A stretch of DNA of 64,000 bases from Thermoanaerobaculia bacterium (GCA_036503335.1 DASXXC010000419.1:20363-84362); one strand, 5' to 3'. Shown: positions 6,346 through 53,118, counted from the stretch's first letter. The notes: a model not told the origin generated them from the letters alone. Made by a program: numbers and translations.

Positions 6346-8970
6346 TCACGGCAGAGCCGCGGAATTTTCGAAGCGCCGGCGCGGTGGAGCGCCGACGATG
6401 CTCTCCGGCTCGTCCAGTGGACGAGGAGGCAGAGTGAACTGGCTGATGCATCCTTGGGCGCGGACCCGCTCCAACCACCGCTCCGCCTCTTCCTGAGAGA
6501 GGCCGCTCACCACCAGCGTATCGATCAGCTTTTGATACTCCTCACGCAAGGTCGTGGCGAAGGTGACCGGATCGTCGGACCCGATACAGACCGAGATCGG
6601 CTGCAGGGGCGTGCCGTCCCGGGGAGGAGAGAGGCGCCAGAGCGGATGCCGGCCGAGGTCCCGCAGGTCTCCGATCAGGAAATTCGAGCTCGGGTTCGCC
6701 TCGATGACGATGCCGTGAGCGCCGACGTGGCGGATCAGCTCCGACTGGATCGTGGCGAGCGCCTCCCCCTCCGGCTCGGTCCGGATCCATTCGAGCTCAT
6801 GTCCGTTCTGGAACACCACGGGATCGGTCAGGAACTGCACGAGCAGGTTACGGCGCTTGCGGTCCTCGATCTCTCCCCGGGCCACTCCACCCCGGAAGGG
6901 CCGGCCGCTCGGGAATCCGACTTGGCAGAGGACCTCGGGCTTGTGCAGATCCTCGACCATCTTCTCCAGGCGGTCGGCGGGATGCGGTTTGCCGAAAATC
7001 TCTTGGGAAAGGCGGGCGATCTCCCGCATCAGGTGGCTGACCCTGCGGCCATCCGGAGGGCTCACGCGGGCCAGGGAATACCAGCCCCACTCCCAGACCA
7101 GATCGAACAGGCGCTCCTCCTTGGGCATCACCACCGAGCCGGTCCGCTTCGCCCAATCCAACGGATCGAGGCCCAGGGCCATCGCGTGCCCGAGCCGGTC
7201 CCCCTCCTGGAGCGGCAGGAACTCCATCGCTTCCGTCACCCGGCGGAGCCCGGTGAGCAGATGAGCGAAATCCTCGCCCGCGTGTACCGTGCTCCGCAGC
7301 GCGGGCGCGGTCTCCTCCGACATCTCCTGAAGGAAGCTCGAAGCTTCCCGGCCGGCGGCGTGAACGTATTGGAACACGGGCACCAGGACCCAGGTGGGAA
7401 CCCCCGCCTCGTCCGTGCAGATGTCGAGCCCGCGCAGCAGAAACAGAACGCTGGGGTGGCGCTGGATGGCCGTCGCCAGCGCCAGCGCCTCCCGCTTCTT
7501 TTTCTGGTAGTAAATCGAATAACGCCAGCCCGTCCGCTTGTGACGCGGATCGGCATAGGAATCGGCCCAGCGGTTTCCGAGCCTCCCCTCCGCCGCGTGG
7601 CCGCCCCGGTCCCGGGTGAAATGGAGAATGAGACCGACCTCGACAGGATGATCCCTGACCCGCTCACACCGCTCCTGGAGGGAGCGGGCGGCCAGCTCCG
7701 TGTCCTTGAAGAGCGTGACGTGCTCGGAGACCGACTCGGACGGCGCGGTCCGGAGCTCCAGATAGCGCAGGCCATGGCCGATCCCCTCCAACTGGGCCGT
7801 GCTCTCGATCTGCACCTTCGTCCCCCAGGCTCTCGCCGTACGGATCCGGCCATAAAAGCGGAAAAACCATTGCAATCCCGGAGTCAAGGGGCGCTGCACG
7901 AGGTGCTGGTAGAAGATGCCGCGCACCCGGATCACCTGCCAGAACAGAGATTCGAAAAGCGCGTCTTTCTTGCCCTTGCCGGCCCTGTCCTCCAGATGCC
8001 ACAGGCCCGCCGCCACGAACCGGATCTCCGGTGTGGGAACGACTGGCGACTCGGATGCCGGAAAATAGCGGGCGATCGGATCGAGCTGCTGGATCTCGGA
8101 GGCACACGTCGGCTCTTTCCATACCGTCGCTCCGCTCAGGCGCGCATAGAGTCCCCGGACCTCGGATAGCTTGATCCCATGCTCAGGCTCCAGCCGGCCA
8201 TGGACGAGCTCCCGGGCCACCGCCTGCAGGAGAGCCGCTCCGGTCGCTCTGAGCTCCGAAGCCAGGACCCCTTGCACCCATTGGGCAAAGCCCATCTCCC
8301 GCGCGTCGCGATCGGTCAGGAACGCGCCCATGAGCACCCGCACGAGCGCGGCCCGGGCCAGCCATTCGCCGAGCTCCTGCCCCTCATTGAATGCGGCGCC
8401 CGGGCTGCGGAAGTCCGAGGCATCGAGGCGCGAGTGCGCCATCACGAGGAGCACTCCCACCCAGAGATCCGTGAATTCGGAGGCGGCTCCGAAGTGCAGA
8501 TGAAGCTGCCCGAAACCGCGGTCCTTCAGCATGCGGTCGAGCCGGGGGGACACCGTGGCGACTCTGCGGCAGGGAGGGGGGCCCTTCTCGATCGCGGCCA
8601 GGAGCAGATCGGGAGGGAGCGAGAGAGCGATCCATTGCCAGAAGATCCTGGAGTCCGCTCCGGAGCTGTCGGGAGTCTGGAGCTCCTCCGGCAGCCTGGG
8701 CCACACCGTCGCTCCGTCCACCCGCAGGCACCGGGCGGCGATGGACCGCAACAGCGCCTCCAGAGGGACGTCGGTCTTTGACCGTTCCCCCTTCTCCGAG
8801 AACCAGATGTAATCGCGCAGGTTGGTGATCTCGTCGATCGAAAGCGAACGCGAGCGGAGATCGTTCTCCACGCACCGCCAGAAGTCGCCGGTCGGTCCCT
8901 TCAGGTCCGGGCACAGGTTCGTGACGTTGGTCCGGAACGCAAGCTCGGTGGCAAAGGGATACGACGCCAT
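6346..8970 (-). CDS. rdrB: Large adenosine-deaminase-fold protein, RdrB-like (RADAR deaminase candidate)
   Basis: LHLHFGAA (HxH metal ligands), STVHAGEDF (HAGE motif) and SVCIGSDDPVTFATTL (SLNTDDP-like), with IEANPSSN immediately upstream, are the adenosine/AMP deaminase signature blocks. They are spread over an 874-aa protein with large insertions. It lies 66 bp downstream of the big ATPase on the same strand. Confidence 0.7.
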   Translation of the reverse strand: MASYPFATELAFRTNVTNLCPDLKGPTGDFWRCVENDLRSRSLSIDEITNLRDYIWFSEKGERSKTDVPLEALLRSIAARCLRVDGATVWPRLPEELQTPDSSGADSRIFWQWIALSLPPDLLLAAIEKGPPPCRRVATVSPRLDRMLKDRGFGQLHLHFGAASEFTDLWVGVLLVMAHSRLDASDFRSPGAAFNEGQELGEWLARAALVRVLMGAFLTDRDAREMGFAQWVQGVLASELRATGAALLQAVARELVHGRLEPEHGIKLSEVRGLYARLSGATVWKEPTCASEIQQLDPIARYFPASESPVVPTPEIRFVAAGLWHLEDRAGKGKKDALFESLFWQVIRVRGIFYQHLVQRPLTPGLQWFFRFYGRIRTARAWGTKVQIESTAQLEGIGHGLRYLELRTAPSESVSEHVTLFKDTELAARSLQERCERVRDHPVEVGLILHFTRDRGGHAAEGRLGNRWADSYADPRHKRTGWRYSIYYQKKKREALALATAIQRHPSVLFLLRGLDICTDEAGVPTWVLVPVFQYVHAAGREASSFLQEMSEETAPALRSTVHAGEDFAHLLTGLRRVTEAMEFLPLQEGDRLGHAMALGLDPLDWAKRTGSVVMPKEERLFDLVWEWGWYSLARVSPPDGRRVSHLMREIARLSQEIFGKPHPADRLEKMVEDLHKPEVLCQVGFPSGRPFRGGVARGEIEDRKRRNLLVQFLTDPVVFQNGHELEWIRTEPEGEALATIQSELIRHVGAHGIVIEANPSSNFLIGDLRDLGRHPLWRLSPPRDGTPLQPISVCIGSDDPVTFATTLREEYQKLIDTLVVSGLSQEEAERWLERVRAQGCISQFTLPPRPLDEPESIVGAPPRRRFENSAALP

Positions 8971-38416: not shown

Positions 38417-38740
38417 TTACGGGCAAGTGGCCGTCCCGGTGTTGCAGTCGACCGTCCCGCCCACGTAATAGGTGGCGATCCGGCAGGGAATGGGGTCATC
38501 GAGGCACTTCGGCACGAAGTAGAAGTCGACGTCCATCATGCCCCCTCCCATGTCGATGACCTCCGTCTGCATCTTGTATAGCTTGGAGCCCTCGAAGGGC
38601 GCCATCTGGGTCTGGAAGCAGGGGGTGGAAAGGGCGATCTTGGCGGGCTGGCACTGGTTGGCCTGCGCGGTGGGCGCGGCGAGGATGAGGACGAACGCCG
38701 TCACGGCGATTACCATGGCGATCTTGAAGAGCTTTGACAT
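38417..38740 (-). CDS. Small secreted Cys-containing protein
   Basis: MSKLFKIAMVIAVTAFVLILAAPTAQA signal and a strong AAGGAGGTG Shine-Dalgarno. Confidence 0.55.
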   Translation of the reverse strand: MSKLFKIAMVIAVTAFVLILAAPTAQANQCQPAKIALSTPCFQTQMAPFEGSKLYKMQTEVIDMGGGMMDVDFYFVPKCLDDPIPCRIATYYVGGTVDCNTGTATCP

Positions 38741-38917: not shown

Positions 38918-40210
38918 ATGAGCGAGCTGATTCTGATCGTTGACGACGAGCCGGGGATCCTCTCCACGCTGGGAGGTATCCTGTCGGACGAGGGATATGC
39001 GACCCTGACCACTACCAGCGGCGAGAGCGCGCTGACTCTCTACGAGGAGAAGCGGCCCGCCGTGGTCTTCCTCGACATCTGGCTGGCCGACCGGGACGGC
39101 CTGGAGACCTTGCAGGCCCTGCGCGACGCCGATCCCACGGCCGCCGTGGTGATGATGTCCGGCCACGGCACCACCTCGACCGCCGTCAAGGCGATCAAGA
39201 TGGGGGCCTACGACTACCTGGAGAAGCCCCTCTCCTACAAGCGGGCGGTCGACGCCGCGGCCGGCGCCCTCGAATACAGGCGCACCCTCCAGGCCGGAGC
39301 GGCCCAGGCCGCCCCCGAGCGGCGGCGGGACCGCGGCGAGGCCGAGCGCCGGTTCGCCGCCGCCCCGGACCTCCCCCTCCTGGCCGAGACCGCGCGCAAT
39401 CAGCGGACCCTCCGCCATTCGACCGTGGTCTACGGCTTAGGTCTGCACTCGGGCCAGCGCACCGGCATGGTCCTCCAGCCGCTGTCCGAGAACAGCGGCA
39501 TCCACTTCGTGACCCTCCCCACCGGGGTCGAGATTCCGGCCCACGTGAGCGCCGTGGCCGAGACCGACTACGCCACCACGCTCTCGGGAGAAGGGGAGAG
39601 CATCAAGACGGTCGAGCACCTCCTCTCGGCCCTTCACGCCTATGGCGTGGGGAACCTGCTGATCAAGGTACACGGGGAGATTCCGGTCCTCGACGGCTCG
39701 GCCCTGGAATTCTGCAAGGTCCTGGAGGAGATCGGAGTGGCCGAGCAGGCCGAGCCGCAACGGGAGGTGGTCATCGACCGCCGCTACGAGGTGAAGGGGG
39801 CGGGCGAGAAGGTGCTGGCGATCGAGCCGGCGGACGAGTTTTCCGTCTCCTACCTCCTCCGCTATCCACCCCCTGTGGGCGAGCAGGCCTACGAATTCAC
39901 CCTCACCTCGCAGGAGGCCTACAAACGGGAGATCGCCCCGGCCCGCACCTTCGGCTTCATGAAGGACCTCAAGATGCTCAACGAGCTCGGCCTCGGCTCG
40001 GGCGGGCGCCTCGACAACTTCATCCTGGTGGGTGAGGACGACGTCATCAACACCGAGCTGCGTTTCCCGGACGAATTCGTCCGCCACAAGATCCTCGACA
40101 TCATCGGCGACCTCTACCTCCTCGGATACCCCATCCGCGGCAAGGTCACCGCCCGTCTCACCGGCCACCGCGACAACATCGCGCTGCTGCGGAAGATCGT
40201 CTCCGGGTAA
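38918..40210 (+). CDS. Response-regulator receiver domain fused to an LpxC-type (UDP-3-O-acyl-GlcNAc deacetylase fold) domain
   Basis: REC: ILIVDDEPGI...FLDIWLADRDGLE...MMSGHG. LpxC-like: RTLRHSTVVYGLGLHSGQRTGMVL, TVEHLLSALHAYGVGNL, ARTFGFMKDL and FVRHKILDIIGDLYLLG. Confidence 0.85.
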   Translation: MSELILIVDDEPGILSTLGGILSDEGYATLTTTSGESALTLYEEKRPAVVFLDIWLADRDGLETLQALRDADPTAAVVMMSGHGTTSTAVKAIKMGAYDYLEKPLSYKRAVDAAAGALEYRRTLQAGAAQAAPERRRDRGEAERRFAAAPDLPLLAETARNQRTLRHSTVVYGLGLHSGQRTGMVLQPLSENSGIHFVTLPTGVEIPAHVSAVAETDYATTLSGEGESIKTVEHLLSALHAYGVGNLLIKVHGEIPVLDGSALEFCKVLEEIGVAEQAEPQREVVIDRRYEVKGAGEKVLAIEPADEFSVSYLLRYPPPVGEQAYEFTLTSQEAYKREIAPARTFGFMKDLKMLNELGLGSGGRLDNFILVGEDDVINTELRFPDEFVRHKILDIIGDLYLLGYPIRGKVTARLTGHRDNIALLRKIVSG

Positions 40211-40288
40211 GCGGGCCACGGGCGTTCCGATCTGGGTTAAAGTTACCGCGCCCTTTCCGACGCAGAGAACGATCCTGGAGGAGTACGG

Positions 40289-42286
40289 ATGGACGCTCCT
40301 GATACGAAGTCCCTGCCCGAGAACGCCTATCGGACCCTCGCCCCTGGCGAGACCTACGCCCCGATCGTCCCCCCCGGGGCCCGCCAGGAGGAGGCGACCG
40401 TGCGCTCGGTCGGCTGGGGTCTCTTCCTGTGCGTCGTCTTCACCATCGCCTCGGCCTATTCGGGGCTCAAGGTCGGGCAGGTGATGGAGGCGTCGATCCC
40501 CATCTCCATTCTCGCCATCGGCCTCGCGCGGACTTTCCGGCGCCGCTCGACGCTGCTGGAGAACGTCATCCTCACCAACATCGGCGGCACCTCCGGCGGC
40601 ATCGTCGCGGGGGCGATCTTCACCCTGCCGGCCTTCTACATCCTCCAGCTCTCGCCGCACCCGCTGCAGACCACCTTCATCCTGATCGCCGGCGGCTGCC
40701 TGGGCGTCCTCTTCCTGATCCCCCTGCGGCGCTACTTCGTGCGCGAGACGCACGGCGAGTTCCCCTATCCGGAGGCAACGGCGATCACCGAGGTCCTGGT
40801 CACCGGCGAGAAGGGGGGCTCACAGGCCGCGCTCCTCCTCCAGGCGACGGGCATCGCGGCGGTCTACGACTTCTTCGTCACCACCTTCCAGGTCTGGCGC
40901 GAGACGATCGACTTCCAGTTCATCCCGGGGATGAAGGTGCTCGCCGACCGCGCCAAGCTCGTGCTCCGCTTCGACGCCATCTCGTTCATCCTGGGGCTCG
41001 GCTACGTGATGGGCCTGCGCTCGTCGGCGATCCTCTGCGCGGGCGGGGCCCTCGCGAACTTCGTGCTGGTGCCGCTGGTCTGGTACTTCGGCCGCGACAC
41101 CGCCCTCGCCGGCTATCTGAGCAAGCCGGTCACCCCCAACATGGACGCCGCGGCGATCTTCCGCAACTACGTCCGCTTCATCGGCGTGGGCGCGATCGCC
41201 ACCGCGGGTATCTTCGGCGTCCTCAAGTCCCTGCGCATCATCCAGGGCTCCTTCGCGATCGCGGCCAAGGCGTTCAAGCACGGCGAGGACAGGGCCCAAG
41301 AGCGCACCGACCGCGACATGCCGATCACCACCATCCTGATCGGCGTGATCCTCACCGCGGTCGTGGCGGGGGTCTTCTTCAACACCCTGGAGGGGACCCT
41401 GCTGGCGGCTCTGGTCGGCCTGCTGCTGACCCTGGTCTTCTCCTTCTTCTTCGCCTCGGTGGCGGCGAACGCCATCGCCACCACGGCCCGCAACCCGGTC
41501 TCGGGAATGACGATGCTGACCATCATCATCTCCTCGATCGTGATGCTGCGCTTCGGCCTCTCCGGGACCACCGGCATGTTCTTCGTGATGGCGGTCGCCG
41601 GCATGGTCTGCACGGCGCTCTCGGTCTCGGGGCAGGTGATCACCGACCTCAAGACCGGCTACTGGCTGGGCAATACGCCCGCGGTGCAGGAGCGGGTGAA
41701 GTTCCTGGGCATCCTGGCCTCGGCGGTTGCGGCGGCGCTGACCATCGTGCTGCTGGCGAAAACCTTTCAATTCGGCGAGGCGGCGCCGGGGGATGCCCGG
41801 GTAGTTCTGGCCTCCCCGCAGGCCTCGATCATGAAGGCGCTCGTCCAGGGGTTCATGAGCCAGCAGCCGATCCCGTACGCCCTCTTCGCCGTCGGCGCGG
41901 TGGTCGCCATCCTCGTCGAGCTGCTGGGGATTCCGCCGCTGATCTTCGCGCTCGGCATGTACCTCCCCCTGGAGCTGAACACGCCGGCGCTGGTGGGCGG
42001 CTTCCTCTCCCACTGGCTGAACCGCCGCTCCGAGACCATGGGCGGCGAGGAGGGGCGGAGCGTCCGCGAGCGGGGGGTGATCATCGCCTCGGGCCTGATG
42101 GCCGGCGGCGCGCTGGGCGGCGTCTTCGGAGCGGCCCTGCGCCTCTTCCCCTGGTACCGGGAGGATCTGATCAAGACCCCCTTCTTCGACATCGATTGGG
42201 TCTCGCAGATCGTCTCGGCCCTGCTCTTCGTGGCGCTCTGCGTCTATCTCTGGTACGGATCGCTGAGGCGGCGGCGGGCGGGATAA
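40289..42286 (+). CDS. OPT-family oligopeptide transporter
   Basis: 665 aa polytopic membrane protein with OPT-like blocks (NIGGTSGGIVAGAIFTLPAFY, MFFVMAVAGMV). Confidence 0.85.
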   Translation: MDAPDTKSLPENAYRTLAPGETYAPIVPPGARQEEATVRSVGWGLFLCVVFTIASAYSGLKVGQVMEASIPISILAIGLARTFRRRSTLLENVILTNIGGTSGGIVAGAIFTLPAFYILQLSPHPLQTTFILIAGGCLGVLFLIPLRRYFVRETHGEFPYPEATAITEVLVTGEKGGSQAALLLQATGIAAVYDFFVTTFQVWRETIDFQFIPGMKVLADRAKLVLRFDAISFILGLGYVMGLRSSAILCAGGALANFVLVPLVWYFGRDTALAGYLSKPVTPNMDAAAIFRNYVRFIGVGAIATAGIFGVLKSLRIIQGSFAIAAKAFKHGEDRAQERTDRDMPITTILIGVILTAVVAGVFFNTLEGTLLAALVGLLLTLVFSFFFASVAANAIATTARNPVSGMTMLTIIISSIVMLRFGLSGTTGMFFVMAVAGMVCTALSVSGQVITDLKTGYWLGNTPAVQERVKFLGILASAVAAALTIVLLAKTFQFGEAAPGDARVVLASPQASIMKALVQGFMSQQPIPYALFAVGAVVAILVELLGIPPLIFALGMYLPLELNTPALVGGFLSHWLNRRSETMGGEEGRSVRERGVIIASGLMAGGALGGVFGAALRLFPWYREDLIKTPFFDIDWVSQIVSALLFVALCVYLWYGSLRRRRAG

Positions 42287-42298
42287 CGTCTCAGCACG

Positions 42299-42325
42299 CC
42301 CTCCCCTCCTGGCGGGAGGGGAGGG
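42299..42325. terminator. Bidirectional hairpin terminator (ccctcccctcc-tggcg-ggaggggaggg)
   Basis: Perfect 11-bp GC-rich stem between the convergent OPT gene and the small peptide gene. Confidence 0.55.
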
Positions 42326-42343
42326 CAGGAGAGCGGCGGACTT

Positions 42344-42487
42344 TCAGCAATACTTGGTTCCGCAGGTGCAGCCGGTGAAACAACTGAGCGCGGTGTTACC
42401 TCCTGCCACGCCTTCGAGCTGAGTCTTTTCGAGGGCCTGCAGCGTCTCGCGGTTGAGGCTCAACTTGACGGTGTTCTGCTTCTTCAT
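42344..42487 (-). CDS. RiPP-type precursor peptide (47 aa): GG-motif leader plus Cys/Thr-rich core
   Basis: My manual translation gives MKKQNTVKLSLNRETLQALEKTQLEGVAGG|NTALSCFTGCTCGTKYC. AAGGAG Shine-Dalgarno sits 7 nt before the ATG. It falls below the ORF-track size cutoff. Confidence 0.6.
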   Translation of the reverse strand: MKKQNTVKLSLNRETLQALEKTQLEGVAGGNTALSCFTGCTCGTKYC

Positions 42488-42867
42488 GAGGAAACTCCTT
42501 TCGTGGCTCATCGTCTCCAGCCTATCTGGGGGACGATAAGGTTACCATACTAAAATTTAGATAACTTGAAAAGACTTGGCTCCAGCGTGCCCGTAATTTC
42601 CACCCCGCCCTACCGGAAATCCCGCCCCACCCGACGGAGCGGGGCGCGTTCTTTGCGCCCGCGCAATAATGAAACCGAGACCTCAGCTTTCCGGTTTCAT
42701 CCCGCCGTTCCCGGTCCTATCCCCGTGGCGATCGTCGCCCCGGGGCCTCCTCCGGAGCCGGGGGTGGCGGGGCCAAATCATCTCGTGGTGACGCGCGGTT
42801 GATTCCTGGAGCTCGACTGCCTACTCTTGTGCCTCGATCCGGTCTCGAAGAGGCCAAGGAGGAAGCG

Positions 42868-43035
42868 ATGAAGAGAGTCGGCAAGCTTACCCTCAACAAG
42901 GAAACCCTAGGCCAGATGGTCGCTCAGCAGGATTCGACCGTCATCGATCCCGTCAACGAGTCGTGCGTCCAGAGCTGCTACATCCAGTCCTGTGGCGGCG
43001 GCTGCACGATCTCGACGGGCTACACCTCGGACTAG
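42868..43035 (+). CDS. RiPP-type precursor peptide (55 aa) with a KLTLNKETL leader and a Cys-rich core
   Basis: MKRVGKLTLNKETLGQMVAQQDSTVIDPVNESCVQSCYIQSCGGGCTISTGYTSD. AGGAGG Shine-Dalgarno before the ATG. Divergent from the other precursor across an AT-rich promoter region. Confidence 0.55.
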   Translation: MKRVGKLTLNKETLGQMVAQQDSTVIDPVNESCVQSCYIQSCGGGCTISTGYTSD

Positions 43036-43347
43036 TACGCCGTCAACCTGAAATGGCGGGTGTTTGTAAGGGCGGCCCTGCGTGGCCGCCCTTACGGAAT
43101 GCGTCATTCCTAGTTGACGATTGACGGCCGCCGCAAATAGCGCTAAATTGAATTTTTGGAATCTTACGGCCTGACCGCCGTGAGAAACCTGAGCGCGGCT
43201 GCATCGCTCTTGCCGGTGCTGACCGTAAACCTCTGGGCCGGATCACTCGGCTCGTTCAGGTGTTCCGACCCTCCTCCCCGGGCAGGACGAGCTTCCTGCC
43301 ATGCCACGCGCCGGGCGCTCGGTGTGCTCGGCGCCAAGGAGAAACCC

Positions 43348-43743
43348 ATGAGCAATCCGGAAGGAAAGAGCGCGACGTACGCCGTCATCGGGTTCGTTCC
43401 CGATGAGGTCGCCCGGTCGATCGGAAAGCAGGGCTATGGCAAGGCGCTCGAGGTCCGCACCGAACGGGGGAAAGATCACGAGGTCATCCATATTCAGCCC
43501 GACCACATCGTGGGGGTCCTGCAGGGGGCCTCGCAAGAGGGGGAGACCGGCGTGCAGGTGATCCTCAAGGAGAACGCAACCGTCCAGACCATGTCTCGCG
43601 GCGTCTCCAGCGAGCTTCGCCTGCGGCCCATCACCGACCTGAGCACCATCATCCACAAGCCTCCGATCTTCGTCATCTATATCGATCCTCACGGTCCGCG
43701 GCTGCCGGATATTCTCAGAGAGCTCAACACCGCCCACCGGTAG
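43348..43743 (+). CDS. Hypothetical protein between the precursor peptide and the radical SAM gene
   Basis: AAGGAG Shine-Dalgarno, coding-like composition, no motif I recognise. Confidence 0.45.
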   Translation: MSNPEGKSATYAVIGFVPDEVARSIGKQGYGKALEVRTERGKDHEVIHIQPDHIVGVLQGASQEGETGVQVILKENATVQTMSRGVSSELRLRPITDLSTIIHKPPIFVIYIDPHGPRLPDILRELNTAHR

Positions 43744-43828
43744 CTTCCGGCTCGCCGCGCCGCTTCGCCGTCGTGCCGGGCGGTCGCCGACCGTCCGGCA
43801 AGTCCTTCATCCGAGGGAGGAGCCTGCC

Positions 43829-45736
43829 TTGAGAGTCCTATTGACCCAGCCGCCCCTCAGCACAAACCCGGAGGTCGGTCCACCGGTGGGCCTCTGCACG
43901 CTGGCCGCCTGGCTGATCCACAAGGGACACGAGGTCTCCGTCCTGGACCTGGACCTCGCCGTCAAAGGCCTTCCATCCGGCCAGGAGGTCTACCGCGGCT
44001 TGCTGGCCAGCGCCGTGAGGGATTTCGCGCCTCAGGTGGTGGGTGTCACCTCGATGTTCAACAACAGCCTGCAGGCGGAGCGTCTCACGCGGACGGTAAA
44101 AGACTGCGATGACTCCATCGTCACCGTCGGGGGCGGCTCTCATTTCGGCGCGCTGACCCTCCAGTCGCTCCGGCGTATCCCCACGCTGGACTACACCATC
44201 GAAGGCGAGGGCGAGGAGGCGTTCGCGGAGCTGCTGGACGCGCTCGCCGCCGGCGCCGCGGTGGCGGACATCCCCCGGCTGTGCCACCGCGTGGATGGCG
44301 AGCCGCGCCAGAACCCCTCCCGCGGCCTGATGGACCTCGCGGAGATCCCGCCGGTCTGGCCCGTGGTGGATGGCTGCGTCGACATCGGCAGATACGCGCG
44401 CACCGTCCCTGCCGGCTCGGCGCGGCGGACCGTCTACATCGAAGTCGGGCGGGGCTGCCCGTTCACCTGTACCTTCTGTGCGACCGCCCCGTTCTGGGAA
44501 CGCAAGTACCGCGTAAAGCCGGTGGCGGCCCTCCTCCAGGAGATCCGCTTTCTTCACGAGCAATACGGATACAACGGCTTCATGCTCGTTCACGACCTGT
44601 TGACGGTCGACAAGGATTTCCTGGACGAATTCAGCGAAGCCGTGCGGGAGTCGCGGTTGCCAGTGGAGTGGATGGCGAACCATCGGACCGACATCAACTT
44701 GTACGGGCTGCTGCCGAAGATGAAGGCGGCGGGCTGCTGGGCGATGTTCTTCGGCATCGAGTCCGCCTCCGAACGCCTGCAGAAGAAGGTACGGAAAGGG
44801 CTAAAGCGCGAGGGCATCGTCTCGACCATCACCGGGCTGGCCGGCCTCGGGATCGCCTCGACGTGCTCTTTCGTTATCGGTTTCCCCGACGAAACGCCGG
44901 AGGAGCTATCGGCCACCGTGGCCCTGGGAGCTGAGCTGAAGCTGCTGGGCGCGGGCATGGTCCAGCTCCATCGCCTGCGTACCTGGCCCCCCGCGCCGCT
45001 CTCCCGCGCCATGCTGCCGGCGCGATTCGACCTGGATTCGCTGCGCCTCGAATACCCGTTCCTCGACGTGCCCGAAGCGGACGTCGCCGCGATCACGGCG
45101 GATCCGGAGTTCTTCGCCGGTTACTTCGCCCCCTCCACCACGGCGGGTACCTTCGCTCAGATGGCGCAGGTCGAGCTGTTCTTCACCCACGCCGTCCACA
45201 TGGCGTCCCTGACGGTCGCCGTAATGAGCCGGCTGGCTGGCGGGAGCCTCATCCCCACCTTCTATGACGTGCTGGCGCGGAGAGGAGGCATCACCCGGCA
45301 GGAGATGGAGGCCGATCCGAACAGCCCATGGCCGGCCTGGCGCGCGTTGCGCCCCCGCCTAGAGGACTGGGTCGCCATCCATCCGGCCTTGGAAGATTGG
45401 CAGCGAAAGCTCGTCCTGGGCGCCATAGACTACGAGGAGAGTCGGCTGCGATTCGTCAACAGCAACGGGGCGGAGCGGGATGGCATGGCCGCCGGCGGCG
45501 AGGACTGGGCCGCGTTCGTCTCCACGGTGGACATCGCCACGCTGTTCGACCACCTACGCAACGGAGGCGCCTTACTGCCGGACCTCGTGAGCGACTGGGC
45601 GGTAGTGTTTGTGCAGACGGGCGGCGGTGCCTTCGGCGCCTATATGACCGACGTGGAACGTCTGCCGGAGCTCAGTGAGCGTCCATCCCTGATGGCGACG
45701 AACGCGCGCTCCGCTCCCGCACCTCCTCCGACGTGA
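43829..45736 (+). CDS. B12-binding-domain radical SAM protein (candidate RiPP maturase)
   Basis: N-terminal Rossmann-like region (VVGVTSMFNNSLQAERLTRTVKDCDDSIVTVGGGSHF) consistent with a cobalamin-binding domain (inference from its position N-terminal to the rSAM core), then the CPFTCTFC (CxxxCxxC) radical SAM cluster motif. Confidence 0.85.
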   Translation: MRVLLTQPPLSTNPEVGPPVGLCTLAAWLIHKGHEVSVLDLDLAVKGLPSGQEVYRGLLASAVRDFAPQVVGVTSMFNNSLQAERLTRTVKDCDDSIVTVGGGSHFGALTLQSLRRIPTLDYTIEGEGEEAFAELLDALAAGAAVADIPRLCHRVDGEPRQNPSRGLMDLAEIPPVWPVVDGCVDIGRYARTVPAGSARRTVYIEVGRGCPFTCTFCATAPFWERKYRVKPVAALLQEIRFLHEQYGYNGFMLVHDLLTVDKDFLDEFSEAVRESRLPVEWMANHRTDINLYGLLPKMKAAGCWAMFFGIESASERLQKKVRKGLKREGIVSTITGLAGLGIASTCSFVIGFPDETPEELSATVALGAELKLLGAGMVQLHRLRTWPPAPLSRAMLPARFDLDSLRLEYPFLDVPEADVAAITADPEFFAGYFAPSTTAGTFAQMAQVELFFTHAVHMASLTVAVMSRLAGGSLIPTFYDVLARRGGITRQEMEADPNSPWPAWRALRPRLEDWVAIHPALEDWQRKLVLGAIDYEESRLRFVNSNGAERDGMAAGGEDWAAFVSTVDIATLFDHLRNGGALLPDLVSDWAVVFVQTGGGAFGAYMTDVERLPELSERPSLMATNARSAPAPPPT

Positions 45737-46199
45737 GCCCGTAGAGCGGCGGCGTGGGGACGTCCAGAAGCCCGAGCATCAGATAGATCTGCCCGCGATG
45801 GTGGATCTCGTGCTCGGCCATCGAGCGCAGCCACTTCCAGACCTGGATCCTGGCGCCGCCGGGGGTTTCACAGCGGCGCTCCAGATCCTCAGGGGTGAGG
45901 CCGCGGAAGATCGCCATCGACTCCGCGTGCATGCGGTCGAAATAGGCCAGCACCGCGTCGTATCCCGAGGCCAGCTCCTGGCCGTGGCCGGGATAGCGGC
46001 TGGGCCGGCAGAGCGCGTTCTCGGCGAACATCCAGCGCTCGATGGCGCCCAGGTGGCGCGTGAGGTCGCCGAAGGTGAAGGCCCCGGGCTTGTACGTCCA
46101 CTCCAGTTGCTCGGGCGGAACGCAGAGGACGACGCGGCGGGTCCGCTCCCGCACGCGCTCGAAATACTGTAGGAAGGGCTCGACGCTCTGGATCTCCAT
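45672..46199 (-). CDS. DinB-family (DinB_2) protein
   Basis: MAEHEIHHRGQIYLMLGLL signature. It is the C-terminal 175 codons of a longer spurious ORF; start set at MEIQS, 12 bp after the pepT stop. Confidence 0.7.
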   Translation of the reverse strand: MEIQSVEPFLQYFERVRERTRRVVLCVPPEQLEWTYKPGAFTFGDLTRHLGAIERWMFAENALCRPSRYPGHGQELASGYDAVLAYFDRMHAESMAIFRGLTPEDLERRCETPGGARIQVWKWLRSMAEHEIHHRGQIYLMLGLLDVPTPPLYGLTSEEVRERSARSSPSGMDAH

Positions 46200-46210
46200 C
46201 TGCTCTCCTC

Positions 46211-47470
46211 CTAGCCCTCCGCCTTCTCCTCCCAGATCCGCGCGAGATGGACGATCACCTCGACCGCCTTCTCCATGTCCTGCGCCGAGACCCATTCGAG
46301 GCGGGAGTGGAAATTCTGCTCGCCCGCGAAGATGTTGGGCGTGGGCAGCCCCATGAAGCTGAGCTTGGAGCCGTCGGTGCCGCCGCGGATGGGGCGCTCG
46401 TGGATCTCCAGACCCACGCGGCGGATGGCCTCGCGGGCGTTCTCCACCACGTCGGGATGATGGTCGAGCACCTCGCGCATGTTGCGGTAGCTCTCCTCGA
46501 CCTTGATCTCCACCGACGCGCCCGGCCAGGCCTCGACCGTCTGGCGGGCGAGCTTCTCCAGGAAATCCTCCTTCTCCTGGAGCCCCGGCCGCGTGAAGTC
46601 GCGGATCAGCAGCTTGACCGAGGTGCGGTCCACGCTCGCGTTGACCACGTAGGGGTGGACGAACCCTTCGTATCCTTCGGTGGTCTCGGGGGAGAGACTG
46701 CCCCTGGGCAGGCGGGAGATGAAGTCGGCGGCGACCTTGATCGAATTGATCATCTTCCCCTTGGCGAAGCCCGGGTGGGTGTTGAAGCCCACGAAGGTGA
46801 TCGTCATCGCGTCGGCCGAAAAGGTTTCCATTTCGATCTCGCCGCGCGCGCCGCCGTCCATGGTGTAGGCGTAGTGAGCCCCGAATTTGGCCACGTCGAA
46901 GTGCTTGGTGCCGGCGCCCACCTCCTCGTCGGGGGTGAAGCCGACGCGGATCGCTCCGTGGGGGATCTCCGGGTGATTCACCAGATACTCGGCCGCGGTC
47001 ATGATCTCGGCCACGCCGCTCTTGTTGTCGGCCCCCAGCAGGGTGGTGCCCGAGGCGGTGATGATGTCGTCGCCGATCCGCTCGCGCAGATAGGGGACGT
47101 CGGCGGCGCGGATCACCGCGGTCGGGTCGTCCGGCAGCACGAGGTCCTGCCCCTGGTAATTCTGATGGACGATCGGCTTGACCCCGGCGCCGCTCATCTC
47201 GGGAGAGGTGTCGACGTGGGCGATGAAGCCGATCACCGGCACGTCCTTCTTCGGGCTGGTGGCCGGGATGGTCGCCATCACGTAGCCGTGCTCGTCGATG
47301 GCGGCGTCGGCGAGGCCGATCGACTTGAGCTCGTCGACCAGATGGTTGAGCAGGTCGAGCTGCTTGGCCGTGCTGGGGTAGGTCTGCGAGGTCTCGCTCG
47401 ACTGGGTGTCGAACTTCACGTAGCGCAGGAACCGCTCGACGACGGAAAAATGGACGGTGGAATCGGGCAT
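46211..47470 (-). CDS. pepT: Peptidase T (tripeptide aminopeptidase, M20B)
   Basis: N-terminus VERFLRYVKFDTQS, HVDT, GADNKSG and M20-type metal-ligand blocks. GAGGAG Shine-Dalgarno before the Met-44 start. Confidence 0.9.
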   Translation of the reverse strand: MPDSTVHFSVVERFLRYVKFDTQSSETSQTYPSTAKQLDLLNHLVDELKSIGLADAAIDEHGYVMATIPATSPKKDVPVIGFIAHVDTSPEMSGAGVKPIVHQNYQGQDLVLPDDPTAVIRAADVPYLRERIGDDIITASGTTLLGADNKSGVAEIMTAAEYLVNHPEIPHGAIRVGFTPDEEVGAGTKHFDVAKFGAHYAYTMDGGARGEIEMETFSADAMTITFVGFNTHPGFAKGKMINSIKVAADFISRLPRGSLSPETTEGYEGFVHPYVVNASVDRTSVKLLIRDFTRPGLQEKEDFLEKLARQTVEAWPGASVEIKVEESYRNMREVLDHHPDVVENAREAIRRVGLEIHERPIRGGTDGSKLSFMGLPTPNIFAGEQNFHSRLEWVSAQDMEKAVEVIVHLARIWEEKAEG

Positions 47471-47675
47471 GGGCGGGGTCTCCTCGGGTCTCCGGCTTGG
47501 CCGGGCTGCCAGGCTCAGCGGAGGAAGGGTATAGGAGGAGAGAGCCCGCCGCCAAGGGGAGGAGAGGCGGCGAGGATCGCTTCTTGAGGGATTGCGCACT
47601 TACAGGGGTAGAGACGGCGAGCCGTGCTCGCCGGATCGTCAACGAGGCTCTATGCCTGCAAAGGAGAACAAGATG

Positions 47676-47906
47676 AAGCGAGGCGCCTGCAAGCTGGTCC
47701 TGGCCTGTACCCTCCTGGTCGCCACGGCGTTCCTGCCGCCGAGCGCCCAGGCGGGGACCTGCTGCACCAACTGCTACAACAAATACCTGGTCACCTGCTG
47801 GAACAGCTGCGCCAGCAACGACACCACCTGCCAGAACAACTGCGAGAACCAATACGACAGTTGCGCCACCGGCTGCAGCCGCTTCGGCGATTTCTGCCCC
47901 ATCTGA
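47676..47906 (+). CDS. Small secreted Cys-rich peptide (76 aa)
   Basis: AAGGAG Shine-Dalgarno, signal peptide MKRGACKLVLACTLLVATAFLPPSAQA, then a 12-Cys mature region (GTCCTNCYNKYLVTCWNSCASNDTTCQNNCENQYDSCATGCSRFGDFCPI). Confidence 0.6.
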   Translation, partial: KRGACKLVLACTLLVATAFLPPSAQAGTCCTNCYNKYLVTCWNSCASNDTTCQNNCENQYDSCATGCSRFGDFCPI

Positions 47907-47989
47907 TTCGGCTCGGGGGGCACCCACTCGGGTGCCCCGGCTTCATCGGGGTTTTGGCCAACCCGCTGGGGGGACCTTTCCTGCGCGCC

Positions 47990-50900
47990 TCACCGCACCA
48001 CCGGCGCTAGCCCGGCCGCGCGGACCTGGCGGTCGAGATCGCGGATCTCCCCGTTGAGGAGCGCCTGCCACTTCGCCAGCGCCGCGTCGAGCTGCTTCCG
48101 GTAGATCTCGAAAGCCTCGCGCTGCGGCGCGTTGGGGGCGCGGTCGGCCCCTTCCAGATCGGTCGCGAGGGGGGTGAGGACGGCGGCGATCGCGGCGAGG
48201 TTGTCCTCCCCGCGAGCGGCGCGCCGCCGGCCACCCGCGGCCTGGAAGCCCGCGACGTCGGCCGCGACCCGCTTCGCCATCTCCCGCAGCGCGGCCGAGC
48301 CCGGACGGCCGCTGAGCTCGCCGTCCAGGGCCTTGAGCCGCGTCGAGATCTCCCCGATCTGCTCCTGTGCGTCCGTCGACCGCGCCAGAGCCTGCGAGAC
48401 CGCCGCGTACATCTCGTGCTGGGCCACGAGATCCGCCTGCGGCGTCTTGACCCGCGGGTCCATGGCGACCTTCAGCGGCTGGGTGACGGTCTTGCCGTCC
48501 GCCGTCAGGCGCACCTGATAGGTCCCCGGCAGGACGAAGATCCCCTGCGGTAGCTCGGGGGTGTCCGCGCCGGGCACGGCGGCGATGGAGTAGTCGTACT
48601 CCAGGGCGCGCGGGCGCGGACCGCGGAGATCCCACACGAAGCGGTTGTGGTGGGGCTGAGCCGGCAGCGCGGACGGCGCCTGCAGCCAGTCGTTGGCGAA
48701 GTATTGCCCCGCCTCCGGACGCTTCGGCGCCTCGTCGCTACGGAAGCTCCGCACCACCTGACCCTTGGGATCGACGATCTCCAGGACGACCGGGCCGCGC
48801 ACGGAGGCCGGCAGCACGTAGTCGAGGATGGCGCCGGCCGGAGGGTTGAACGCCCGCGGCTCGTCGAGCGGCAGCGGCGTGTCCCGGTTCTGGTTGGCCC
48901 CCACCCGGTAGGCCGTGGCCGGCGGGAGGAGGGTGGCGGCGGTGACCGAGCCGGTCAGATGGCGTAGCGGCGAGATGTCGTCCAGCACCCAGAGCGAGCG
49001 CCCCTCGGTGGCGGCCACCAGGTCGTCGCCGTGGATCGTGAGATCGTTGACGCCGGTCGTCGGCAGGTTGAGCTGCAGCGGCTGCCAGTGAGCGCCGTCG
49101 TCGAAGGAGACGAAGGCGCCCCGGCTGGTGCCGGCGAACAGGAGCCCCGCCTTGACCGGGTCCTGACGCACCACCGCCACCCAGCCCTCGGCCGGCAGGC
49201 CTGCCGTGGCCTGCGTCCAGGTCTTCCCGAAGTCGTGGGTGACATAGAGATAGGGGCGGTCGTCGTCCATTCGGTGGCGGTCGACCGCGGCGTAGGCGGT
49301 GCCGGCCGAGGTCGCCGAGGCGTCGATCTGGGCCAGCCGGCTCCACTCGGCGAGGCCGGGCGGGGTGACGTTCTGCCAGTGCTTGCCGCCGTCCCGGGTG
49401 AGCCGGATCAGCCCGTCGTCGGTGCCCACCCAGATCAGATCTTTCTCGATCGGCGACGGCGCGATGGTCGAGATCACGCCGAAGCCGCAGGTCCTGGCGC
49501 GCGAGACGGGGACGTCCCCGGTCTCACAGTCCTTGGTGCCGGGGACGGCGCCCGAGAGGTCCGGGCTGATCGTCTCCCAGTGCTGGCCGCCGTCGAGCGA
49601 GCGGAAGAGCACCTGGGCGCCCTGATAGATCGCGTGCGGCGGCAGGGGGGAGATGGCGATCGGGGTGATCCAGGTGGTGCGATAGCGCACGGAGGTCGGC
49701 CGCGCGCCGTAGGTGGAGACCGGCCACGGAGCCACGTTCGAGACCTGGCCCGTGCGGCCGTCCCAGCGCGAGAGGCGCCCGCCGAGGCCGCTGCCGTAGA
49801 TGATGTCGGGGTCGCCGGGGAAGGGGAGGTCGTAGTCGCGCTCGTCGCCGCCCACCGGATGCCAGTCGCGGAAGGTGAGCTGGCCGTAGTCGCTTCGGCT
49901 CGCCACCCCCACCGTGCCGCTGTCCTGCTGGCCGCTGTAGATCCAGTAGGGGAAGCGGTCGTCGGTGGCCACGTGGTAGAACTGGCCCGTGGGCTGGTTG
50001 TACCAGGAGCTCCAGCTGGCCCCGTTGTTGACGGTGACCACCGTCCCCTGATCGCTCGCCACGATCATCCGCTCCGGCCGCTCGGGATCGATCCACAGGA
50101 AGTGATAGTCGTCGCCGCCCGGCGCGCCGCGGAAGAAGTCGAACGTCTTGCCGCCGTCGTCCGAGCGCCGGATCGACTGCCCCATCACATAGACCGTGTC
50201 CTGATTCTTGGGGTCGACCGCGAGCATCGAGAAGTAGTCGCTGGCAAAGCCTCCGTTGTTGTTGACGTACTGCCAGTTGGTGCCGCCGTCGTCCGAGCGG
50301 TAGAGCCCCGAGCCGGGGCCGTTGGCGTTGATCGTGGCATAGACGCGGGCGCCCCGGCTGCCGGGCGCGACCGCGAGGCCGATGCGTCCCAGGGTGCCGT
50401 CGGGGAGGCCGTGGCCGGTGAGGTGCGTCCAGGTCTTGCCGCCGTCGGCCGATTTGTAGATGCCGCTCCCCGGGCCGACGCTGGGCGTGAAGTAGGAGAG
50501 CCAGGGGTAGTAGCGAAGCTGCCAGGTGGCGGCGAACACCGTGTCCGGCGCGGCCGGATCGGCCGCGAGGTCCACGGCGCCGGTGTTGTCGTCCACGAAC
50601 AGAACCTTCTCCCAGCTCCGGCCGCCGTCCGTGCTGCGGAACACCCCGCGCTCCGCGTTGGGTCCGAAGACGTGCCCTTGGGCGGCCACCAGCACCACGT
50701 CGGCGTTGCGGGGATCGACCCAAAGGCGGCCGATGTGGCGGCTGTCGGCGAGCCCGCGCGCCTCCCAGGTCCTGCCGCCGTCGGCGGAGCGGTAGATGCC
50801 GGCGCCCGAGGCGATGTCCCACCGGGAGGTGACCTGGCCGGTGCCCACGTAGATCACCGCCGGATCGCTCGGCGCCACCACCAGGGCCCCGATCGACGCC

Positions 50901-52071: not shown

Positions 52072-53118
52072 CTAGATCCCGGCAGCGATCGCGTCGGCGT
52101 CGCGGCTGCCGCGGTCTGTCGCCTGCTGCTCGAGTTGCAGCCGGGTGCGGGCCACAGCCTCGCGAAGGTGCCGCTCCAGCAGGTCGCGCGGCGGGAGCTC
52201 GGTCAGGTACTCGGCCACATGGATGCCTCGGGGCTCGAGCTCGAGCACCTCAACGGTTTCGCGCTTCTTGCCGGCACAGAGGATGAGGCCGATGGGTCTC
52301 TCTTCCCCCTTCTGCCGTTCGTGGCGGTCGAGCCAGCGTAGGTAGAGCTCCATCTGGCCGGCATCCGCGGGCTTGAAGTCGCCGATCTTCAGCTCGATGA
52401 CCACCAGCCGCCGCAAGCGGCGATGGTAGAACAGGAGATCCATGTAGTAGTCGTCGCCATCCAGCGTGATGCGCTTTTGGCGTTCGACGAAGGCGAAGCC
52501 GATGCCGAGCTCCAGGAGAAAGGATTCGATCTCGCGTAGCAGAGCGTCCTCCAGATCTCTTTCGCCGTAGGTATCCCGCAGGCCGAGGAAGTCGAGCACA
52601 TAGGGGTCCCGGAAGACCAGGTCGGGAGTGAGCTGGTCTCGTTCGCGCAGCGCCTGGATCTCCTGCGCGATGAGCTTTTCGGGCTTCTTCGAGAGGGCGG
52701 TGCGCTCGTAGAGCATGCTGTCGATCCGGGACCGCAGAGCCCGGACGCTCCAGCGCTCGATGCGGCACATCTCGGCGTAGAATTCGCGCTGAAGCGGGTC
52801 TGTCAGGGGGAGGATCTCCTTGAAGTGGCTCCACCCCAATTGTCGCGACAGTGTAGCGACAATCTGGGGGTCGGTGAATGAAGAGGCGAACTGCACCATC
52901 CGGCGAAGGTTTTTCTCGCCGAAGCCGCGTCCGAATTCGAGCTCCAATTGTGCGGACAGCGCCAGCACGATCTCGGCGCCATACTCCGCACGCTTCTCCT
53001 GGAGAATCTCCCGCTGGATGCGCTCACCGACCTGCCAGTAGAGTAGCGTCAGGCCGGTATTGACCATCCGGGCGGTCTGCTGCCGGGCTTCGAGGATAAG
53101 GTCTCTCACCTCGGCCAA
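52072..53118 (-). CDS. YhcG/DUF1016-family protein (PD-(D/E)XK nuclease fold)
   Basis: N-terminal NTGLTLLYWQVGERI and LSWSHF blocks, plus C-terminal DGDDYYMDLLFYHRRLRRLVVIELKIGDF (a D...ELK PD-(D/E)XK core). Confidence 0.8.
   Translation of the reverse strand: MAEVRDLILEARQQTARMVNTGLTLLYWQVGERIQREILQEKRAEYGAEIVLALSAQLELEFGRGFGEKNLRRMVQFASSFTDPQIVATLSRQLGWSHFKEILPLTDPLQREFYAEMCRIERWSVRALRSRIDSMLYERTALSKKPEKLIAQEIQALRERDQLTPDLVFRDPYVLDFLGLRDTYGERDLEDALLREIESFLLELGIGFAFVERQKRITLDGDDYYMDLLFYHRRLRRLVVIELKIGDFKPADAGQMELYLRWLDRHERQKGEERPIGLILCAGKKRETVEVLELEPRGIHVAEYLTELPPRDLLERHLREAVARTRLQLEQQATDRGSRDADAIAAGI

Follow-up and report, generated by a model that had tools for sequence, protein, structure and literature searches.

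The 64,000-nucleotide (nt) stretch of DNA analysed here, referred to throughout as the window, comes from a Thermoanaerobaculia bacterium (GCA_036503335.1 DASXXC010000419.1:20363-84362). Between an OPT-family oligopeptide transporter gene and a DinB-family gene it carries two divergent genes for short leader-bearing peptides (peptides A and B), a gene for a 131-amino-acid (aa) "hypothetical" protein and a gene for a B12 (cobalamin)-binding radical S-adenosylmethionine (SAM) enzyme (Table 1). An earlier note on this DNA, made from the sequence alone, had paired A and B with the enzyme and proposed a ranthipeptide or a C-methylated RiPP (a peptide synthesized on the ribosome and then modified post-translationally) as the product. 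Comparison with related loci led us to a different reading, which we consider likely: the window holds two independent modules that became neighbors by accident of insertion, and the 131-aa protein is the precursor on which the B12-binding enzyme acts, probably by C-methylation.

Table 1 Features of the locus, numbered from the first nucleotide of the window
Feature	Position	Strand	Remarks
OPT-family oligopeptide transporter	40289..42286	+	PF03169, 296 bits; TIGR00733, 268 bits
Perfect 12-bp inverted repeat GCCCTCCCCTCC/GGAGGGGAGGGC	42298..42326	.	Between OPT and peptide A
Peptide A	42344-42487	-	47 aa; MKKQNTVKLSLNRETLQALEKTQLEGVAGG then 17-aa core NTALSCFTGCTCGTKYC (whole: MKKQNTVKLSLNRETLQALEKTQLEGVAGGNTALSCFTGCTCGTKYC)
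Divergent intergenic spacer	42488..42867	.	Between A and B; GC dips to 51%
Peptide B	42868-43035	+	55 aa; MKRVGKLTLNKETLGQMVAQQDSTVIDPVNESCVQSCYIQSCGGGCTISTGYTSD; AAGGAGG upstream
Insertion	43036..~45704	.	~2.67 kb; whole radical SAM cassette
Perfect 12-bp inverted repeat GTAAGGGCGGCC/GGCCGCCCTTAC	43066..43095	.	30 nt past the peptide B stop codon
Sigma-70-like promoter match TTGACG-17-TAAATT	43121..43149	+	5′ of the precursor gene; consensus match only
131-aa "hypothetical" protein	43348..43743	+	Interpreted as the enzyme's precursor
VIYI motif of the 131-aa protein	43672..43683	+	aa 109-112; equivalent to the family ending x-I-x-[VAI]; Ile110 = Ile -3
B12-binding radical SAM enzyme	43829..45736	+	635 aa; TTG start; PF02310 and PF04055
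C-terminal domain of the enzyme	45119..45733	+	aa 431-635; TglI-like predicted fold
DinB-family protein	45672..46199	-	PF12867 and PF05163; conserved chromosomal neighbor

The radical SAM cassette lies in a discrete insertion

The insertion was mapped by blastn of window positions 40000-48000 against loci containing relatives of peptide B. In L100-L103, L107 and L110-L113, whose flanks are 83-93% identical to the window at the nucleotide level, homology stops at 43035 and resumes at 45703-45708, and in these near relatives the stop codon of peptide B (ending at 43035) is separated from the 3′ end of the DinB gene by only ~10 nt. At locus L011, homology to the window runs from 43278 to 45701 (81% nucleotide identity), with its right end at the insertion junction; the enzyme encoded there is 86% identical to that of the window, and the genomic context is unrelated. 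The jump in homology among the relatives, together with the match in L011, indicates that the window carries a discrete 2.67-kb insertion comprising a hairpin, a promoter-like site, the gene for the 131-aa protein and the radical SAM gene. No target-site duplication was found at the junctions. An identical enzyme is encoded on 19 contigs but, since all of them keep the gene order of the window, they add no independent information.

The last ~10 codons of the enzyme gene (…SAPAPPPT) lie in what is plain flanking DNA in the relatives, which explains why the radical SAM and DinB genes, convergent at their 3′ ends, overlap by 65 nt (45672-45736). Judged from these alignments, the insertion appears to have replaced the native C-terminus and stop codon of the enzyme. 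At the opposite end, the inverted repeat past peptide B probably acts as a terminator that sets this gene apart from the cassette, and the promoter-like match lies between this hairpin and the gene for the 131-aa protein. An Rfam scan of positions 42200-43900 detected no cobalamin riboswitch and no other RNA family, giving only chance matches to the hairpin. Having an upstream hairpin and a promoter-like site of its own, the inserted segment is a self-contained two-gene cassette (module 2).

The enzyme groups with RiPP-type B12-dependent radical SAM enzymes

The earlier note had rightly described the enzyme as a B12-binding radical SAM protein with the motif CPFTCTFC. A PF02310 B12-binding domain (53 bits, aa 16-136) is followed by a PF04055 radical SAM core (68 bits, aa 204-364), the motif (aa 210-217, nt 44456-44479) is the only cysteine cluster of the protein, and neither Pfam nor NCBIfam gave a match to a SPASM or auxiliary-cluster domain. 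We found 412 homologues of the enzyme and, among the 120 matches listed, all are at least 51% identical to it. The best NCBIfam match was ApyD, whose model aligned over aa 15-434 with 213 bits (cutoff 750); further curated matches were BchE (124 bits), TIGR03975/rSAM_ocin_1, a RiPP C-methyltransferase family (107 bits, cutoff 282), and P-methyltransferases including PhpK, and none of the curated methyltransferases has the enzyme as an equivalog. By sequence, no solved structure is close, the best match being 9ccb_A (only 78 bits), followed by AprD4, TokK, CysS and TsrM.

The C-terminal 205 residues were modeled with a predicted local distance difference test score (pLDDT) of 87.9 as a helical bundle followed by a β/α module. 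In a Foldseek search, the only significant match to this domain was TglHI (8hi7_A; E 3.3e-4, probability 1.00, TM 0.55), and sequence identity to TglI/DUF2063 proteins is 11-15%. This similarity of a predicted fold supports, rather than proves, the presence of a built-in peptide-recognition domain. With ApyD as its best curated match and a TglI-like domain, the enzyme belongs, as the earlier note had supposed, with the RiPP-type B12-dependent radical SAM enzymes and not with those of primary metabolism.

The 131-aa protein is the constant partner of the enzyme

A scan of one genome per species yielded 23 loci with full-length enzyme orthologues (L018-L040), distributed over Thermoanaerobaculia, Holophagales, Bryobacteraceae, Terriglobales, Acidobacteriaceae bacterium KBS 96, two Krasilnikovia isolates, a Hoeflea genome and other metagenome-assembled genomes of Proteobacteria. 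In all 27 assessable ortholog loci, the enzyme adjoins a homologue of the 131-aa protein or a shortened version of it (L018 was left out of this count, as its contig ends upstream of the enzyme). A profile of the 131-aa family detected a member immediately 5′ of the enzyme in 16 distinct loci as well as in the window, and the partner gene is also present in L037, L097 and L099. In L026-L030, L032 and L033, where the enzyme is 50-53% identical to that of the window, the adjacent gene encodes only 29-45 aa, for example MKEAQAVNDAKALQVKGLRPSRLQDPLLSSPVTNGPTVIFV in L029. These short peptides occur in two copies in L028 and in three in L029, and are found downstream of the enzyme in L033. Since they retain the segments MKEAxAV and LRPSRLxDPLL as well as the core, we regard them as members of the same family that lack the folded domain.

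In the 131-aa protein, a β-rich domain (aa 10-90) is joined through the segment LRLRPITD (aa 90-97) to a hydrophobic core, LSTIIHKPPIFVIYI (aa 98-112), after which comes a follower, DPHGPRLPDILRELNTAHR. In the AlphaFold2 model, pLDDT is ~80 for aa 10-90 and the tail is disordered. The N-terminal domain is well conserved and contains an invariant GAS..GET.VQ motif. Neither Pfam nor NCBIfam gave a match at E <= 0.1 for the 131-aa protein or at E <= 10 for its relatives, the family had no sequence match in the PDB, and a literature search found no paper describing the cassette or the precursor family.

An exhaustive profile search retrieved 52 representative family proteins of 64-156 aa, most of which have 104-122 aa, with the C-terminus placed exactly 17-18 residues beyond a DP dipeptide. 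Among the sequences that end with the core, the DP stands at -18/-17 or -17/-16 in every case (43/43), Leu at -15 in 38/43, Ile at -3 in 41/43 and V/A/I at -1 in 41/43, and Phe or Tyr occupies -2 in 16/43, with the core spanning 16-18 residues. In the clade of the window, the equivalent core, D-LSTIIHKPPIFVIYI, is followed by a charged follower of 19-27 aa. The architecture of the partner tracks the enzyme clades, as follower-bearing proteins pair with enzymes 59-100% identical to that of the window, and the short peptides accompany those that are 50-53% identical to it. Tandem copies with variable cores, a C-terminal core of fixed length, a disordered tail and an architecture that follows the enzyme are the marks of a substrate and not of an accessory protein, and the 131-aa protein is thus probably the true substrate of the enzyme and the representative of a new precursor family.

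The folded and conserved N-terminal domain could also be read as that of an obligatory partner or chaperone, the real substrate being encoded elsewhere. This would parallel the B12-dependent radical SAM enzyme MpcB, which requires a separate DUF5825 protein, MpcC (PMC10849626), and would fit a cassette that has no protease or exporter. In one enzyme clade, however, the folded domain is gone and only the 29-45-aa peptides are left, in up to three tandem copies with variable cores as is typical of substrates. The strict spacing of 17-18 residues from DP to the C-terminus and the near-invariant Ile -3 point to a site of chemistry, and the enzyme itself already carries a domain of predicted recognition type. 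We consider a mere partner role improbable on these grounds, and retain the 131-aa protein as the candidate substrate.

When the genes neighboring the cassette were clustered across the 27 loci, no conserved protease or exporter emerged and only a MacB/FtsX permease recurred. This MacB_PCD/FtsX permease (808 aa) lies divergently beside the cassette in seven loci of the short-peptide clade (L026-L029, L032 and L033 among them; e.g., L026 5182-7608, minus strand), and could be an exporter or a case of shared synteny. MacB/FtsX permeases are common in these phyla, and it was therefore not counted as part of the system.

Two loci show the cassette in a larger setting. On metagenome contig L097 (2376-8842), two consecutive pairs of precursor and B12-dependent radical SAM genes (108 + 631 aa; 111 + 612 aa) are followed by a third radical SAM gene, and JmjC, ATP-grasp and further radical SAM genes lie on the other strand; the contig may represent a more extensive, composite RiPP cluster with this cassette at its center. 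At L014 (2319-9908), the cassette follows a second B12-dependent radical SAM gene (656 aa) and genes for a 962-aa AMMECR1-domain protein, a 2-oxoglutarate-Fe(II) oxygenase and a carbamoyltransferase. The AMMECR1 protein is directly upstream also in L015, whose enzyme is identical to that of L014, and is missing from the remaining ortholog loci for which genes were called.

Peptides A and B are orphan precursor-type peptides

Both small genes singled out by the earlier note are genuine and conserved. Shine-Dalgarno-like sequences lie 5-9 nt 5′ of each, and for peptide A, whose mechanical open reading frame (ORF) runs to 55 aa from an upstream ATG, it is the 47-aa start that has a ribosome-binding site (AAAGGAG). 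The leaders of A and B have K-L-x-L-N-[KR]-E-T-L in common, and the regular expression [KR]x0-2LxLx[KR]E[TS][LIV] matched the six-frame translation of the window only twice, at A and at B (shuffled sequences gave a mean of 0.04 matches). In the spacer between the two genes, which the earlier note had described as AT-rich, the GC content drops to 51%, against 67.6% for the window. The leader of peptide A ends in GVAGG and precedes a Ser/Thr/Cys-rich core with four Cys, and the peptide resembles class I lanthipeptide and TIGR04149 precursors in passing both models, NF038153 (class I lanthipeptide leader) with 29.7 bits (cutoff 22) and TIGR04149 (radical SAM-modified RiPP) marginally, with 26.0 bits (cutoff 25). 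Peptide B differs from such precursors: it scores 15.8 bits with NF038153, under the cutoff, has no TIGR04149 match, and reads VIDPVN where its relatives read VIGGGN or VVGGN. Of the two peptides, only A has a GG motif in the window, which corrects the earlier note on this point.

The homologues of peptide A are 74% (P0143, L016) and 78% (P0142, L017) identical to it, peptide A itself is named "class I lanthipeptide" in a public source, and a metagenome scan with the peptide A alignment gave no confirmed relative. The corresponding scan with peptide B yielded 18 loci (L100-L117), and these together with L017 provide ~25 homologues of 50-95% identity. Their core, N[DE]SCVxSC[YF]xxSCxGGCTIS, is strongly conserved, unusually so for a RiPP. 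Two copies of B and a divergent A-type peptide are often found together. Peptide B is the constant element of these loci and peptide A is variably present, being missing from L100-L103, where OPT is followed by a spacer and peptide B.

By the earlier note's own account, its reading would be refuted if the small genes were not conserved alongside the radical SAM gene in related genomes, and this lack of conservation is what was found. Relatives of A and B occupy the same chromosomal slot (OPT … DinB/PepT) in ~20 other contigs, in none of which is the enzyme encoded, and neither the radical SAM profile nor the 131-aa profile had a match in the A and/or B homologue loci L016, L017 and L100-L117. 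The gene order is PepT-DinB-luciferase-A-PadR-MacB-OPT-(REC-LpxC) in L016 and DinB-hydrolase-B-A-(REC-LpxC) in L017. Eight A/B homologue loci extend over at least 6 kb, and the flanking genes encode OPT, catalase, DinB, M20 peptidase, sortilin, RF3, amidohydrolase and methyltransferase. Conversely, 25 of the 26 other enzyme-ortholog loci (392 kb) have no A/B-type leader peptide. The exception, L033, encodes at 4459-4752 (plus strand) a leader-type peptide, MLKKLHRLTLNRETLRRLDEPALRVVEGGG…, with an unrelated core, 3.2 kb upstream of the radical SAM orthologue.

These distributions bear directly on the proposal that the enzyme acts on A and B to yield a Cys-rich RiPP of ranthipeptide-like or C-methylated type, with the 131-aa protein as an accessory. 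In its favor, no more than 1.5 kb separates the genes of A, B and the enzyme in the window and on all 19 contigs with the identical enzyme, peptide A passes a leader model for radical SAM-modified RiPPs, and L033 has a peptide with the same leader type 5′ of the enzyme. Against this, homologues of A and B elsewhere never adjoin the enzyme, the enzyme sits inside an insertion that is missing from close relatives, a hairpin and a promoter-like site stand between peptide B and the cassette, and the enzyme is always accompanied by an adjacent precursor of its own. A ranthipeptide is ruled out, as the enzyme has no SPASM or auxiliary-cluster domain and no Cys-rich precursor is co-conserved with it. 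Comparative genomics has thus largely refuted the substrate role of A and B, and we hold it to be extremely improbable.

If the enzyme is set aside, no candidate maturation machinery is apparent. The earlier note had suggested looking nearby for a leader peptidase or exporter, and none was found beside A and B or in the cassette. The 20 largest ORFs of the window do not encode LanB, LanC, LanM, a SPASM enzyme or a C39-type exporter, and in five homologue loci (L105, L110, L111, L114 and L117) the ten flanking genes scanned encode no LanB, LanC, radical SAM-SPASM protein or C39 exporter. Within the 64 kb, the B12-type enzyme, paired with a precursor of its own, is the sole radical SAM enzyme, and no radical SAM/SPASM maturase lies beside A and B. 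DinB was considered as a thiol-transferase partner of A and B and rejected as simple synteny, since L114 and L117 have no DinB. A literature search on class I lanthipeptides in Acidobacteria returned nothing specific. By their sequences, A and B are genuine RiPP-precursor-type peptides with leaders of the class I lanthipeptide or GG type, and they are orphans in every context examined. Given that no maturase, leader peptidase or dedicated exporter is encoded nearby, they may be matured in trans by enzymes encoded elsewhere in the genome or be exported as unmodified four-Cys disulfide peptides. The two, both with Ser/Thr/Cys-rich cores, form a divergent precursor pair (module 1) in a fixed slot, from OPT to DinB/PepT, of a Thermoanaerobaculia-like lineage.

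Neighboring genes and other features of the window

The OPT gene, correctly placed upstream by the earlier note (PF03169), keeps its synteny in L016, L103, L105 and L110, all of which have no radical SAM gene, and is a conserved chromosomal neighbor outside both modules. The inverted repeat that separates OPT from peptide A probably terminates transcription in both directions, and Rfam gave no family at threshold for it. On the other side, DinB directly adjoins peptide B in the relatives. At 38918-40210 (plus strand) lies a gene of unusual architecture, in which a response-regulator receiver (REC) domain is fused to LpxC (PF00072 + PF03331); this fusion is kept beside OPT in L016 and L017.

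Two further small proteins, a 77-aa protein at 47673-47906 (plus strand) with a Cys-rich mature part, TCCTNCYNKYLVTCWNSCASNDTTCQNNCENQYDSCATGCSRFGDFCPI, and a 107-aa protein at 38417-38740 (minus strand), have apparent N-terminal signal peptides and are unrelated to the leader-type peptides. Elsewhere in the window, an 874-aa protein encoded at 6346-8970 (minus strand) matches the RADAR adenosine deaminase RdrB (PADLOC, 154 bits; Pfam A_deaminase) and adjoins a gene for a 264-aa SIR2_2/ThsA-like protein (104 bits) at 4960-5754 (minus strand). The pair may form a defense island; no RdrA-type ATPase was identified beside the RdrB-like gene. An ORF at 850-1737 (plus strand) weakly matching IS1 transposase (27 bits) and a YhcG/DUF1016 PDDEXK nuclease gene at 52072-53118 (minus strand) may be remnants of mobile elements.

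Proposed mechanism and its standing

In the mechanism we propose, the N-terminal β-rich domain of the 131-aa protein would serve as a long leader, and the segment LRLRPITD(L/P), which corresponds to LR(P)x(x)LxDPxL in the family, would probably be recognized and bound by the enzyme through its TglI-like C-terminal domain. The B12/[4Fe-4S] active site would then receive the hydrophobic core with its V-I-Y-I end. The likeliest chemistry would be methylcobalamin-dependent C-methylation at unactivated carbons of the side chains, with the near-invariant Ile -3 and/or neighboring Val, Pro, Phe and Tyr residues as likely targets. Three features of B12-dependent radical SAM RiPP C-methyltransferase systems are present, namely an N-terminal cobalamin domain, a CxxxCxxC radical SAM core and a co-conserved adjacent precursor with a variable core. 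The C-methylated RiPP of the earlier note remains plausible as a product, with the 131-aa protein in place of A and B as its precursor.

Several observations weigh against this account as a whole. Leaders do not usually comprise a folded domain of 85 aa, which might serve a separate function, and with no protease or exporter in the cassette the product may not be a released peptide. The ApyD score of the enzyme is far under the equivalog cutoff, and B12-dependent radical SAM enzymes also form C-C, C-S and C-P bonds and catalyze ring contractions (PMC11117315; PMC12257519). As for the separation of the two modules, L033 does have a leader-type peptide in the vicinity of the enzyme, and many peptide-B contigs are short (1-4 kb), so that the lack of a cassette carries weight only in contigs that include both flanks, which is the case for L101, L103, L107 and L110-L113, plus L100 and L102 with a short right flank (166-410 nt).

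In another reading, the enzyme and precursor would be paired as we suggest and the chemistry would not be methylation but a C-C or C-heteroatom cross-link or another rearrangement within the hydrophobic core, or the functional end product would be an uncleaved modified protein of ~110-131 aa. Enzymes of this kind do carry out cross-linking and other reactions on RiPPs, the present one is no equivalog of a curated methyltransferase, no protease or exporter is conserved with the cassette (the MacB/FtsX permease being found only in the short-peptide clade), and an aromatic residue is frequent at -2. The nearest curated families, however, are C- or P-methyltransferases (ApyD, rSAM_ocin_1 and PhpK), and the conserved core residues are aliphatic (Ile, Val, Ala and Leu) and offer no obvious cross-link partner. 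We regard such an outcome as rather unlikely, and C-methylation of the 131-aa precursor as the better account.

More broadly, and only tentatively, as we give it slightly less than even confidence, the cassette could define a new class of RiPP or protein modification. In this class, a B12-dependent radical SAM enzyme with a fused TglI-like domain would modify a C-terminal core of the form DP-x15-I-x-[VAI], borne by leaders that are either a folded, β-rich domain of 85 aa with a novel fold or a minimal segment of 20 aa. The two-gene cassette would move between Acidobacteriota, Actinomycetota and Alphaproteobacteria, and would give rise to a new kind of hydrophobic peptide or lipophilic protein tail, modified by poly-C-methylation or by other radical chemistry.

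The locus illustrates how gene adjacency can mislead RiPP mining, as a Cys-rich leader peptide beside a radical SAM gene would be called the precursor when the true partner is an unannotated "hypothetical protein". The cassette is also a compact two-gene system in which B12-dependent radical chemistry on aliphatic, unactivated residues could be tested, with a clear candidate recognition motif and a core of fixed length, putative natural minimal substrates of 29-45 aa, and cultured hosts in Krasilnikovia and Acidobacteriaceae bacterium KBS 96. In addition, a conserved family of orphan Cys-rich peptides in Acidobacteriota is documented.

Comparison with known systems

Proteusins, such as polytheonamide (precursor PoyA, B12-dependent radical SAM C-methyltransferases PoyB and PoyC), combine a leader of ~90 aa with C-methylation of aliphatic residues. 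The present system is similar in its proposed long leader and B12-dependent radical SAM enzyme, which matches TIGR03975, and differs in that the proposed leader of the 131-aa protein has no match to the NHLP or Nif11 models.

The best curated match of the enzyme, ApyD (NF050148), is a B12-dependent radical SAM enzyme of aminopyruvatide biosynthesis in Burkholderia thailandensis that contains a RiPP recognition element (RRE) and β-methylates the penultimate Tyr of ApyA (GYLYD), giving (2S,3R)-β-methyltyrosine (PMC11117315). The two enzymes share the B12-binding radical SAM architecture and a similar length of ~640 aa, and ApyD likewise acts near the C-terminus of its precursor. In contrast, the alignment to the ApyD model does not include the C-terminal 200 aa of the present enzyme, the precursor, which lacks a YLY motif, is unrelated, and there are no MNIO (an oxidative enzyme that depends on multinuclear non-heme iron), cytochrome P450 or methyltransferase partner genes, only the two-gene cassette.

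A direct precedent is clavusporin biosynthesis in Streptomyces clavuligerus, in which MpcB β-methylates an unactivated hydrophobic core of Val, Ile, Thr and Pro up to eight times, and some mpc precursors have a follower whereas others lack one (PMC10849626). The hydrophobic PPIFVIYI-type core and the split into precursors with and without a follower are paralleled here. Unlike the mpc clusters, in which a DUF5825 partner is needed and an S9 peptidase and a major facilitator superfamily transporter are present, the cassette proteins gave no such Pfam matches, and the neighboring genes differ between cassette loci. The mpc leader is 17 aa, compared with a folded domain of 85 aa here, and mpc clusters are limited to Actinobacteria, whereas this cassette is found mainly in Acidobacteriota. 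Distant (~31% identical) B12-dependent radical SAM genes in Streptomyces loci were considered as possible mpc clusters and rejected, as their gene content differs.

The predicted recognition domain has its nearest structural counterpart in the 3-thiaglutamate pathway, where residues 171-269 of TglI are a predicted RRE and TglHI acts on the C-terminal residue of the scaffold peptide (PMC9016710). TglI is there the recognition partner of the MNIO TglH, whereas here a domain that resembles it in predicted fold is fused to a B12-dependent radical SAM enzyme. Overall, the system is of a known kind, that of ribosomal peptides modified by B12-dependent radical SAM enzymes, and is new in its precursor architecture, its predicted recognition domain and the composition of its gene cluster.

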